Shown here piece by piece: positions 363 to 2,301 of a DNA stretch of 4,506 bases. Position numbers and translations under genes: made by a program. The stretch is from the IMG/VR virus record IMGVR_UViG_3300028985_000039. One strand, given 5' to 3'. The notes below the pieces were generated by a model. It had not been told where the DNA came from, did not search any database, and saw nothing but the letters and a program-made list of their open reading frames with translations. Numbering within the stretch: position 1 is the first letter of the stretch; each line of letters starts with the position of its first letter. The stretch is from a virus (taxonomy: Duplodnaviria > Heunggongvirae > Uroviricota > Caudoviricetes).

Positions 363-560
363 ATAATGATCTCGGATTTTAAGTTATGCTATGGTGATAA
401 AGTGCAAGACAGAATTAATTATCTTTGACGAAACTTAATGGGTAATTACTTTGTTTGCTCCCACAAGCGAGTTTTGTACGGCTGTATTGGGGTAGTAAAT
501 GAGCTATACAATCTTAATCATTTGTTAGGTGAGAACTCTTGGTCGCAGATTCAAATACTG

Positions 561-610
561 AAAATACGTGACAAATTATTATGAGCAAAATGGTGTATGT
601 CACGTATTTT
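561..610. repeat. perfect 13-bp inverted repeat (AAAATACGTGACA / TGTCACGTATTTT) separated by 24 bp
   Basis: Read directly: arms at 561-573 and 598-610 are exact reverse complements. Confidence 0.9.
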
Positions 611-743
611 GAATGATAGGTTAAAAAATAACACCGACTTTCGTAGGTATTACTAATAATAAAGCAGAGTTTTTAGATAGTATCAATGTGCTTTGTGTAT
701 ATTGTGGCAAATAATTGGGTTGGGGGTACAATTGTGATTGCTT

Positions 744-773
744 TTGCATAAAAATTGCGCCTTTATGCATAAT
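744..773 (+). promoter_or_regulatory. candidate sigma70 promoter for ybcL: -35 TTGCAT (744-749), 18-bp spacer, -10 CATAAT (768-773)
   Basis: Hexamer match and spacing about 50 bp upstream of the ybcL start; an AAGAGG Shine-Dalgarno lies at 816-821. Flanked by repeated TGCATAA motifs. Confidence 0.3.
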
Positions 774-826
774 GAGATAAAGGAATATCAAATAAAATAA
801 CGATAGGTCATAACAAAGAGGTTTTT

Positions 827-1378
827 ATGAAAACACTTATCGTTTCAACTGTATTGGCATTCATAACATTTTCTGCGCAGGCTGCAGCATTTCAGGTCAC
901 TAGTAATGAAATAAAAACAGGAGAGCAACTTACAACGTCTCATGTCTTTTCTGGATTTGGGTGTGAAGGTGGTAATACATCGCCCTCATTAACCTGGTCT
1001 GGTGTTCCTGAAGGTACCAAAAGCTTTGCCGTAACTGTATATGATCCAGATGCACTTACAGGCAGTGGTTGGTGGCATTGGACTGTTGTTAATATTCCAG
1101 CAACAATAACATATTTGCCCGTTGATGCAGGGAGACGTGATGGAACAAAACTGCCGACTGGTGCTGTTCAAGGCCGAAATGATTTTGGCTATGCTGGGTT
1201 TGGTGGCGCATGTCCTCCTAAAGGAGATAAACCACATCATTACCAGTTTAAAGTATGGGCTCTAAAAACTGAAAAGATTCCTGTAGATTCTAACTCCAGC
1301 GGAGCGTTAGTTGGTTATATGCTTAATGCTAATAAAATCGCAACCGCTGAGATAACACCAGTTTATGAGATAAAGTAG
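827..1378 (+). CDS. ybcL: periplasmic/secreted PEBP (RKIP/YbhB-YbcL) family protein, 183 aa
   Basis: N-terminal signal peptide (MKTLIVSTVLAFITFSAQA | AAF). PEBP signature motifs VYDPDA and GWWHW, and the PHHYQF motif. Length and sequence agree with recalled E. coli YbcL. Confidence 0.93.
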   Translation: MKTLIVSTVLAFITFSAQAAAFQVTSNEIKTGEQLTTSHVFSGFGCEGGNTSPSLTWSGVPEGTKSFAVTVYDPDALTGSGWWHWTVVNIPATITYLPVDAGRRDGTKLPTGAVQGRNDFGYAGFGGACPPKGDKPHHYQFKVWALKTEKIPVDSNSSGALVGYMLNANKIATAEITPVYEIK

Positions 1379-1387
1379 GGTGAGAGT

Positions 1388-2185
1388 ATGCTGGCAAGAG
1401 GTAAGACTAACTTAAAGATCGAAGAAATACGGATGCATAAACATCATGAGATTCATAGGGTTAAGCCTCTTATGCCAGCTTTGTGTCGTATCCGTCAGGG
1501 AAAGAAAGTTATCAATTGGGAGACGCATACTTTAACTGTTGATAATAATCAAATAATATTATTTCCTTGTGGTTATGAATTTTATATTGAGAATTATCCT
1601 GAAGCAGGGCTTTATCTTGCAGAAATGCTTTACTTACCCATTGATTTAATTGAGAGTTTCCAAAAACTTTATACGGTAACTGATCAAATACGTAACAAAA
1701 CAAGTTTCTTTTTACCTCAGAATCCTGAGTTAATATATTGTTGGGAGCAACTAAAAACATCTGTTTCCCGAGGCTTCTCAACTAAAATTCAGGAGCACTT
1801 AGCAATGGGCGTTCTACTTTCGTTAGGAGTGAATCATGTTAATCATTTACTTTTATCATATAGTAAACAATCATTGATAAGTCGTTGTTATAACCTGCTG
1901 CTATCCGAACCCGGCACAAAATGGACAGCAAACAAGGTTGCTCGATATCTCTACATTTCTGTTTCTACATTACATCGCCGTCTAGCAAGCGAGGGGGTAA
2001 GTTTCCAAAGTATACTGGACGATGTGAGGTTAAATAATGCGTTGTCTGCTATACAAACGACGGTAAAACCTATAAGCGAGATTGCCAGAGAAAATGGTTA
2101 TAAGTGTCCTTCTCGTTTTACTGAAAGATTTCATAATCGTTTTAATATAACACCAAGAGAGATAAGAAAAGCTTCCAGAGAGTAA
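1388..2185 (+). CDS. ybcM: AraC/XylS-family transcriptional regulator, 265 aa
   Basis: C-terminal double helix-turn-helix typical of AraC family ([42 protein letters not shown] ... [19 protein letters not shown]). Starts 9 nt after the ybcL stop. Matches recalled YbcM length and position. Confidence 0.9.
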
Positions 2186-2249
2186 AAGTGTTTTAAGAAG
2201 GAGCAATTCTATCGATTTTGATTTTGGGAAATCAACACGGCATAATTAT

Positions 2250-2278
2250 GTCACCGGAGCCTGAACAACTCCGGTGAC
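2250..2278 (+). terminator. GC-rich hairpin (10-bp perfect stem GTCACCGGAG / CTCCGGTGAC, 9-nt loop); possible weak terminator or attenuator after ybcM
   Basis: Read directly. It is followed by TTCTGCGC, not a clean U-tract, so terminator function is uncertain. Confidence 0.3.
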
Positions 2279-2301
2279 TTCTGCGCTAAACGGGGACGTT
2301 T

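Follow-up and report, generated by a model that had tools for sequence, protein, structure and literature searches.

A pair of AT-rich genes, ybcL and ybcM, lies in a phage backbone of about 50% GC in the stretch of DNA analyzed here, and this raises the question of where the pair came from and whether it displaced the replication genes that are missing upstream of it. The stretch, termed the window below, comprises 4,506 nucleotides (nt) of IMG/VR virus record IMGVR_UViG_3300028985_000039 (Caudoviricetes). Its gene order is the end of an IS3-family insertion sequence (IS), a ybcK remnant, ybcL, ybcM, ylcH, ybcN, ninE, ybcO, rusA, ylcG and Q, and in Escherichia coli K-12 these genes bear the same names, with quuD in the place of Q. 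A first-pass annotation, made from the letters of the window alone, had read positions 363-2300 as an acquired module that replaced the replication and early genes. The answer reached here, with high though not complete confidence, is that positions 404-2216 are a moron-type, self-regulated cargo cassette of foreign origin in a DLP12-like lambdoid prophage, and that the absence of the early genes is a separate matter, namely a deletion associated with an IS3-family element.

Exact counts bear out the compositional contrast. GC content is 37.5% over 363-2300 and 50.9% over 2301-3804, sliding-window and codon-adaptation checks agree, and uniform composition across the window is excluded. The earlier hand counts had the contrast right and the values too low, at 27% against an exact 32.3% for the leader (363-826) and 48% against 52.6% for rusA. 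The lowest 200-nt windows reach 29-31%, and the two cargo genes stand at 42.0% (ybcL) and 36.2% (ybcM). Third-codon-position GC (GC3) is 25.5% in ybcL and 28.6% in ybcM, compared to 44-61% in ybcN, ninE, ybcO, rusA and ylcG and 55-66% in ten E. coli core genes. An index similar to the codon adaptation index, built on ten E. coli core genes taken from the loci analyzed, gives the cargo 0.42-0.48 and the host core genes 0.59-0.76.

The right-hand break had been placed near a hairpin at 2250-2278, and this is where it falls. A two-segment likelihood split of 92-4273 puts the change point at 2249, with a 2-log-likelihood (lnL) interval of 2218-2271 and a gain of 38.8 lnL units compared to a maximum of 8.4 in 200 shuffles. 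This break lies within about 30 nt of an independently mapped mosaic joint (2216/2217, described below). The left edge fared differently. No compositional boundary falls at position 363, since the ybcK remnant before it is also AT-rich (31.4% GC over 99-362), and in intact relatives the AT-rich block begins directly past ren. In phage PhiR70_1 this block measures 3.9 kb and consists of emrE (41% GC), ylcJ (23%), ybcK (35%), a spacer (33%), ybcL (42%) and ybcM (36%).

The limits of the cassette itself come from comparison with sister phages. PhiR70_1, PhiR68_2 and PhiR34_1, all complete phage genomes, carry window positions 92-4255 at 98% identity and the cassette at 99.7-99.8%, with cI-cro-cII-O-P-ren upstream. 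The order in PhiR70_1 is cI, cro, cII, O, P, ren, emrE, a small open reading frame (ORF; ylcJ in K-12), ybcK, ybcL, ybcM, ybcN, ninE, ybcO, rusA, ylcG and Q. Phage 4A7 and its relatives, as well as PhiR47_2, match the window at 92-403 and again at 2217-4255, with a reverse-strand esterase gene in between, which sets the limits of the cassette at 404-2216 (1,813 bp, + strand). PhiR30_1, PhiR26_1, PhiR5_1 and IdasGreatGrand have the backbone in common only rightward of 2216/2217, and the interval holds an acyltransferase and a lipoprotein gene in PhiR30_1 and PD-lambda-1 with Rha in PhiR26_1. The right joint at 2216/2217 is common to six phage contexts, while on the left similarity to PhiR70_1 is lost within the last 30-55 nt of ren in all of them, lambda included. 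Between ren and ybcN there are 74 bp in lambda, containing only the tR2 terminator, compared to 1.5-3.9 kb in these phages, and the contents of all six slots have 36-42% GC between flanks of 50-51%. These shared joints with differing cargo make the ren-ybcN interval a hypervariable cargo slot, and the ybcLM cassette sits at the right end of this uniformly AT-rich slot, at the ninB position. A literature search returned nothing specific naming the ren-ninB slot as a moron hotspot. The PhiR26_1 occupant PD-lambda-1 (locus extract L007, 3190-4692; PADLOC E = 2e-198) is an anti-phage defense gene, so the slot holds defense cargo besides metabolic and stress cargo.

The cassette is thus patchily present among phages with the same flanking backbone, and its composition is unlike that of its neighbors. 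It also appears to be dispensable for phage growth, judging from complete genomes with named propagation hosts in which it is absent (4A7, PhiR30_1, PhiR26_1 and PhiR5_1). Phages with and without the cassette have both been deposited as complete genomes with their hosts named. PhiR68.2 has been employed as an infective phage (10.1101/2025.11.03.685801), and the PhiR phages are mentioned in the literature as an infection panel only.

A sensitive blastn search found cassette DNA in 4 of 50,697 phage records, namely the three PhiR genomes, the only complete phage genomes to carry ybcLM, and 48 nt of the phage 82 fragment X92588. This fragment starts inside the end of ybcM, and phage 82 may therefore carry the cassette too. 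Together with the comparison with lambdoid phages that bear O, P and ren, this means that ybcLM is not core equipment of lambdoid phages.

Bacterial chromosomes present a different distribution. Cassette DNA occurs in 3,258 of 5,426 complete E. coli genomes and never on plasmids. A DLP12-type copy (at least 99% identity) is found in 673 genomes, and a copy of about 92% identity is found at another site, beside fliE, in 2,584 genomes (48%). Since the 3,258 genomes contain 3,345 cassette places, few of them hold both loci. The order at the second site is fliE, emrE, ybcL, ybcM, an IS200/IS605 transposase gene, a yedK fragment and yedF, as observed in the commensal strain HS (extract L011, 8524-10676) and in ST131 (extract L012); B2 strains that carry the remnant include ST131 and NC101. 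The fliE islet is cut by the IS200/IS605 element. It retains the last bases of ren before emrE and, past ybcM, the hairpin, ylcH and the very start of ybcN, which identifies it as the decayed remnant of a related phage's prophage. It has neither ylcJ-ybcK nor window positions 363-671. The missing ylcJ-ybcK segment measures 2,083 bp and is likewise lacking in the Escherichia albertii arrangement; its ends show no clean att-like repeats, only a short AT-rich similarity (AATAAT).

The E. albertii arrangement consists of an integrase gene, the tail of ren, emrE, ybcL, ybcM and the hairpin region, with no ybcK. In strain NBRC 107761 (extract L015, 4403-11375), the amino-acid identities are 96% for emrE, 88% for YbcL and 82% for YbcM. 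The genes adjoin a P4-type integrase gene, together with genes for a flavin mononucleotide oxidoreductase, a hydrolase and a LysR regulator, and the block appears to lie between genes of an opp/dpp-like transporter operon. Between lineages, the ratio of nonsynonymous to synonymous divergence (dN/dS) lies at 0.06-0.12 in both ybcL and ybcM and at 0.01-0.03 in emrE, values which point to purifying selection on all three genes, including those of the fliE remnant. With a dS of 0.19-0.40 between them, the two E. coli loci appear to have been introduced separately and not to have arisen by recent duplication.

Outside Escherichia, full-length YbcM orthologs of 45-62% identity are found in Phytobacter, Salmonella, Cedecea, Lelliottia, Budviciaceae, Plesiomonas, Brenneria and Yersinia ruckeri, and in each context examined the AraC gene is directly preceded by a phosphatidylethanolamine-binding protein (PEBP) gene of 183-185 codons. 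The two genes are separated by 9 nt in Y. ruckeri, Cedecea and Salmonella and by 14 nt in a Plesiomonas-like metagenome-assembled genome (MAG), whose PEBP has 185 amino acids (aa). The Y. ruckeri, Cedecea and Plesiomonas-like pairs are chromosomal and non-phage. The first of these has a trypsin-like gene on one side and glyoxalase and sodC genes on the other, and the second lies between tauABCD and a phosphotransferase system/murQ-like pair. In the MAG the pair is found between an ASCH gene and ychF-pth-prs, and in Salmonella it is on a resolvase/transposase island. This conservation of the pair at non-phage chromosomal sites supports the view of ybcLM as acquired cargo with its own regulator. 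In Cedecea the pair has a GC3 of 0.66-0.67 and in Y. ruckeri one of 0.46-0.48, compared to 0.25-0.33 in Escherichia copies. Since its GC follows the host in Cedecea and Y. ruckeri, AT-richness is a property of the lineage that entered phages and not of the gene family, which supports a foreign origin. The Y. ruckeri sodC (extract L022, 5440-8440), which follows the glyoxalase-family gene, encodes a periplasmic Cu/Zn superoxide dismutase; its adjacency echoes the H2O2 sensitivity of the K-12 ybcM mutant (see below) and the co-travelling paraquat exporter gene emrE. Two "Shigella flexneri" loci, among six from the YbcM genome-contig scan, were set aside because their translations were fragmented and of low identity and they look like poor assemblies.

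The regulator of the cassette is encoded by ybcM (1388-2185, + strand, 265 aa), which starts 9 nt past ybcL (827-1378, + strand, 183 aa). YbcM is 100% identical to its K-12 counterpart and ends in a double helix-turn-helix (Pfam HTH_18, 61.5 bits compared to a cut-off of 33.6; HTH_AraC, 29.1 compared to 26.6). Its closest solved chains are GadX, Rns, CsvR and ToxT. It resembles regulators of the Rns/ToxT/GadX/HilD type in several respects, in that Rns has the same length (265 aa) and a co-linear C-terminal match, and in that YbcM, as in Rns-type systems, is encoded in acquired, AT-rich DNA that contains an H-NS site and binds to the region of its own promoter. However, the likeness is limited to the DNA-binding domain (E = 1e-6 to 1e-7), and the N-terminal match of YbcM is to ExsA_N, below the Pfam cut-off. 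Counter-silencing of H-NS by YbcM is plausible by analogy, because GadX, Rns, CsvR and ToxT act on AT-rich acquired loci.

Binding by YbcM has been mapped in K-12, and it agrees with the proposal that the pair includes its own regulator. Under paraquat, 12 YbcM sites were found by chromatin immunoprecipitation with exonuclease digestion (ChIP-exo), and the strongest (signal/noise 357) is just upstream of ybcL, at 570015-570048, listed as "upstream of operon ybcLM" (Gao et al., PMC8464067 Dataset S5). This site is also bound by RNA polymerase, and deletion of ybcM lowers H2O2 survival eight-fold (PMC8464067). The coordinates were taken to be in the NC_000913.2 frame, which was checked against ucpA, because version 3 would put the ucpA site inside cysP and the ybcL site inside ybcK. 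With the offset of +777 between the two NC_000913 versions, the site maps to window positions 726-759, plus or minus about 2 nt, or -101 to -68 from the ybcL ATG. A direct repeat of TGCATAA at 745-751 and 766-772 (+ strand, 21-bp spacing; also scored as inverted repeat I3) lies under and beside this peak. The pattern TGCAyrA-N14-TGCAyrA is found at an equal distance from the ATG in the window and in the fliE, E. albertii, Salmonella and Cedecea copies. In the Plesiomonas-like copy the promoter-proximal half-site reads GGCATGA, and Y. ruckeri retains only the promoter-proximal half-site. It can be inferred from these alignments that the TGCATAA repeats are candidate YbcM half-sites.

The surrounding regulatory region (672-826, + strand) accompanies ybcLM in every E. 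coli or E. albertii context, with homology starting at 672 for the fliE-adjacent copy and at 729 for E. albertii. It contains a constitutive RpoD (sigma-70) promoter of ybcLM, GTGGCA-17-TACAAT, which was published for K-12 from systematic evolution of ligands by exponential enrichment (SELEX), in a spacer that also has an H-NS site (Shimada et al., PMC3946193). It was located in the window by scan at 704-732 (+ strand). The emrE-ybcK spacer is likewise bound by H-NS, and an internal promoter before ybcM is listed (PMC3946193). The H-NS sites in both spacers, ybcK-ybcL and emrE-ybcK, were determined by Genomic SELEX in K-12, and the promoter SELEX was performed in vitro. The leader is AT-rich relative to the host and may be silenced by H-NS.

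The other gene, ybcL, encodes what its matches identify as a Sec-exported periplasmic protein of the PEBP/RKIP family (PF01161; YbhB/YbcL subfamily TIGR00481). The Pfam match has E = 1e-40 (139.5 bits compared to a cut-off of 24), the NCBIfam equivalog PRK09818 scores 395 bits compared to a cut-off of 277, and residues 20-183 match Protein Data Bank (PDB) entry 1FUX with E = 4e-111. The start of this last match at residue 20 is what cleavage of a Sec signal peptide (about aa 1-21, ending in AQAAA) would lead one to expect. The cytoplasmic E. coli paralog YbhB (PDB 1FJJ/1VI3) has the fold family in common with YbcL (E = 3e-48), but unlike YbhB, YbcL has a signal peptide, is phage-borne or accessory, and is paired with a regulator. 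In uropathogenic E. coli, YbcL is reported to be periplasmic, to be released by lysis and to suppress neutrophil transepithelial migration, with one residue dividing active from inactive variants (reviewed in PMC4810123). The description of the protein as secreted and effector-like was therefore an overstatement. The allele in the window and in CE10 differs from that of K-12 by P77L (codon 1055-1057) and V94I (codon 1106-1108), and the differences between the window allele and the fliE-type allele are T3K, T8S, V60A, L77P, V88A, I94V, V99A and E149D.

The missing early genes have been explained as displaced, that is, by an AT-rich module inserted in place of O, P and ren upstream of ninB, and O, P and ren are indeed absent from the window. 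Such a replacement is extremely unlikely and is refuted by the intact relatives. The three PhiR genomes hold a near-identical cassette together with cI-cro-cII-O-P-ren, with the cassette downstream; O, P and ren lie upstream of the cargo block in all intact relatives; and K-12 keeps renD, emrE and a full-length ybcK upstream of ybcLM. The window is 99.6-99.7% identical to the chromosomes of E. coli AR_0013 and CE10, and CE10 is matched from base 1. The K-12 alignment starts at 92 (98% identity), and most relatives align from 92 onward only. In CE10 the region adjoins tRNA-Arg (argU in K-12) within a DLP12-type lambdoid prophage, where the order is an integrase remnant, a single IS3-family element and the last 267 nt of ybcK. 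The window begins with the 3' end of this IS3-family element (1-91, + strand; transposase stop at 53-55, with the CE10-annotated transposase ending at window position 56), and the C-terminal remnant of the large serine recombinase gene ybcK follows (96-362, + strand), which is annotated in CE10 as "recombinase family protein, missing N-terminus" and aligns with the 3' end of the full-length 1527-bp ybcK in PhiR70_1 and K-12. Compared to K-12, CE10 has lost 5,069 bp (K-12 locus extract L004, 2089-7157) containing intD, xisD, exoD, renD, emrE, ylcJ and the 5' part of ybcK, and in the window and CE10 the IS3-family element abuts the truncated ybcK in place of this segment. These alignments indicate that the early genes were lost through an IS3-family-associated deletion and were not displaced by ybcLM. 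The element (extract L003, 10519-12362) has no match to the IS3 copy in K-12 renD at the threshold used.

The composition of the cassette can be read in more than one way. Low GC may be the standing composition of the lambdoid accessory pool, kept by AT-biased mutation and/or by selection for H-NS silencing, and not the mark of a recent low-GC donor. This possibility is held with somewhat less than even confidence: each slot variant has 36-42% GC regardless of gene content, two E. coli ybcLM lineages that differ by a dS of 0.19-0.33 both hold a GC3 of 0.25-0.30, the fliE remnant has not drifted toward host GC, and the spacers have published H-NS sites (PMC3946193). However, amelioration is slow, so that persisting low GC is not decisive, and the Plesiomonas-like chromosomal pair is equally AT-rich in surroundings of about 40-45% GC, which is compatible with a low-GC donor lineage. 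A standing composition would bear on the cause of the AT-richness only and does not conflict with cargo status. That the contrast is an ordinary regional fluctuation or an effect of amino-acid composition is refuted, with a probability close to zero. GC at codon positions 1 and 2 of ybcL (0.51 and 0.50) is near backbone values, as such an effect would have it, but the likelihood gain far exceeds that of any shuffle, GC3 is halved, the non-coding leader has 32% GC, and the break coincides with the independent mosaic joint. It is also very unlikely that the cassette is an anti-phage defense or superinfection-exclusion module. PD-lambda-1 occupies the same slot in PhiR26_1 and ren is adjacent, but PADLOC-DB 2.0 gave no match for YbcL, YbcM, YbcK, EmrE or the esterase while the PD-Lambda-1 control was strong (E = 2e-198), the pair is chromosomal beside housekeeping or stress genes in other genera, and the phenotypes in print concern oxidative-stress survival (PMC8464067) and neutrophil migration (PMC4810123).

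Several observations weigh against the preferred reading of a self-contained foreign cassette with its own regulation. The AT-rich block extends beyond 363-2300, taking in ybcK and, in intact phages, emrE as well, and the nearest AT-rich relative outside Escherichia is only 72% (YbcL) and 51% (YbcM) identical. Promoter-like matches in the window are at chance level, with 12 found by consensus scan and 9.9 expected, and the ybcLM promoter therefore rests on the published in vitro SELEX and not on the window sequence. The YbcM footprint overlaps the -10 of this promoter and also the -35 of a further possible promoter downstream (TTGCAT at 744-749, CATAAT at 768-773), so that autorepression fits as well as activation from the downstream promoter. 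No canonical intrinsic terminator closes the cassette. The hairpin past ybcM has no U-tract, was not called by the terminator scan, and is part of a backbone junction shared with phages that lack ybcLM. Finally, the conserved PEBP pocket motif DPDxP reads DPDAL in the window as a result of P77L, while DPDAP is kept in K-12, PhiR70_1, fliE-type and E. albertii copies. This allele may alter YbcL function, but the family assignment stands.

In the mechanism proposed for the foreign cassette, ybcLM is a self-contained two-gene unit that exists outside phages too, whose low GC marks its foreignness to the 50% GC phage backbone. YbcM would bind the conserved TGCAyrA direct repeats and autoregulate the ybcLM operon, and it would probably counter H-NS silencing on some signal, possibly an oxidative or envelope one. 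Counter-silencing of this kind would permit cI-independent expression from a repressed prophage, and the hairpin at the backbone junction could limit read-through into ylcH-ybcN-rusA.

Morons of lambdoid phages, for example lambda bor and lom, were reportedly described by Juhala and Hendrix in 2000. The ybcLM cassette is moron-like in that it consists of extra genes between conserved backbone genes, is patchy among syntenic phages, has a distinct composition and its own published RpoD promoter, and appears dispensable for the phage. Unlike lambdoid morons, it appears to have no dedicated intrinsic terminator and brings its own transcription factor, and unlike single-gene morons it is part of a compound 3.9-kb block (emrE, ylcJ-ybcK, ybcLM). 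The proposal of a horizontally acquired moron thus holds up, given that the slot is swapped in sister phages, that so few complete phage genomes carry the pair and that non-phage pairs occur in Enterobacterales. The closest known system is the ybcLM operon of K-12 DLP12 (b0545-b0546), which lies at the same locus with 99.7% DNA identity over the cassette and the same neighbors, ybcK on one side and ylcH to Q on the other. Compared to K-12, the prophage here has the IS3-family deletion from intD to the ybcK N-terminus, where in K-12 an IS3 interrupts renD, and the sequence diverges downstream of Q, with a lipocalin gene in CE10 and the nmpC porin gene in K-12.

The ybcLM locus and its regulation are already described, including the promoter, H-NS and YbcM-binding data, a YbcL crystal structure and a virulence phenotype, and novelty is therefore low. 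What the comparison adds is a correction, in that an IS-associated deletion and not the cargo removed the replication genes, and the base-pair limits of the cassette and of the ren-ybcN slot. Across Enterobacterales the PEBP gene travels as a unit with the regulator and its candidate binding repeats, and ybcLM is a clean case of the capture of self-regulated cargo by a phage, followed by its retention in the host after phage decay. Of modest interest in their own right are the exact boundaries, the junction element, the widespread fliE remnant and the conservation of the pair and its repeats across Enterobacterales.

The right edge of the slot is formed by a conserved backbone junction element of about 190 bp (2217-2400, + strand), delimited by alignment of sister phages. 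It is 90-96% identical in 4A7, PhiR30_1, PhiR26_1, PhiR47_2, PhiR5_1 and IdasGreatGrand regardless of cargo, with weaker matches in HK639, phi80, HK225 and Klebsiella/Enterobacter phages. At its start, in conserved columns, lie the palindrome TTGATTT-N4-AAATCAA (2218-2235) and a -10-like CATAAT (2241-2246, + strand), a putative promoter/operator. The phage 82 record X92588 annotates these as a putative -35 and -10, and the scan match is TTGATT-17-CATAAT. In PhiR26_1 and IdasGreatGrand the element (window 2217-2370) is present twice, with 80-85% identity (extract L007, 4935-5089 and 6870-7073; extract L010, 3023-3151 and 5001-5204). Rha-containing modules lie between the copies, and behind each copy begins a ylcH-like ORF with a differing 3' part. 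This suggests that the duplicated element may act as a recombination joint for cargo exchange.

The hairpin in this element (2250-2278, + strand) has a 10-bp stem with fully complementary arms (2250-2259 and 2269-2278, 10/10) and a 9-nt loop, folds at -22.2 kcal/mol (z = -3.5), and is labeled "possible regulator-binding site" in X92588. Across ten copies, 88% of cells are paired. C-to-U changes in five of the ten sequences keep G.U on the + strand only, and three pairs have changed on both sides. The strand-specific retention of G.U favors an RNA structure in the rightward transcript, and the hairpin is probably an element of that RNA. It may also terminate transcription, by analogy with lambda, in which the intrinsic terminator tR2 in the ren/ninB gap places a stem-loop likewise immediately before the ninB-position gene, at the same backbone position and with the left joint in the end of ren in common. 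The lambda slot, however, is 74 bp with a canonical terminator (stem plus T-run), compared to up to 3.9 kb of cargo, a hairpin without a T-run and then ylcH here.

Past the hairpin, a second inverted repeat, GCGCTAAACG / CGTTTATGCGC (2283-2307, + strand), encloses the ylcH start codon in nearly invariant columns, and its homolog is annotated as "IR4" in phi80. The gene ylcH itself (2302-2403, + strand, 33 codons) overlaps the junction element; the K-12 and CE10 annotations include it, and phage 82 has it as orf33. Its substitutions are spread over the codon positions as 11/12/12 (a small sample), which hints at conservation at the nucleotide and not the protein level, and the ORF is broken in the fliE remnant. 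Therefore ylcH may be conserved as DNA or RNA and not as protein. A broader joint reading, which is considered unlikely, is that 2217-2400 is a dedicated element for cassette exchange and transcription insulation that drives cargo swaps, with ylcH as its by-product, and, linked to this, that emrE-ybcL-ybcM is a coherent stress module, combining paraquat/cation efflux with an oxidative-stress regulator, which was domesticated twice by E. coli, once beside fliE.

The non-coding leader (363-826) contains some further features. A perfect 13-nt inverted repeat, AAAATACGTGACA / TGTCACGTATTTT (561-573 and 598-610; -18.7 kcal/mol, z = -3.6), lies within 404-671, a segment seen only in the DLP12-type arrangement, and neither the fliE nor the E. 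albertii copies have the repeat. A terminator for ybcK and a site for a recombinase are possible roles. Its right arm is also the window's best minus-strand promoter-like match, GTGACA-17-AATAAT (603 to 575). A 48-codon ORF at 438-584, annotated as a hypothetical protein in PhiR70_1, has no Pfam match. It was not treated as a gene and is probably not one, because it has no family match and the segment is missing from other ybcLM lineages. An Rfam scan (E <= 1) assigned no known RNA family to the leader or the hairpin.

Rightward of the slot, the nin-region backbone of about 50% GC (2400-4273, + strand) comprises ybcN (2400-2855), ninE (2855-3025), ybcO (3018-3308), rusA (3305-3667), ylcG (3664-3804) and a Q-type antiterminator gene ending at 4273. 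The run of ten N inside this last gene (4009-4018) is masking or an assembly gap and not biology. The one match of the Rfam scan is sub-threshold, to RF02278 at 4359-4402 (28.6 bits compared to a gathering score of 50), and a canonical terminator-like hairpin with a T-run is found at 4372-4395, downstream of Q. GC falls a second time directly after Q, to 36.9% over 4274-4506, and homology with most relatives stops at 4255 or 4429. The gene cargo past Q varies, with lipocalin and YbgA-family genes in CE10 and the nmpC/ompD porin in K-12 and PhiR70_1, and the region 4274-4506 looks like another cargo slot.

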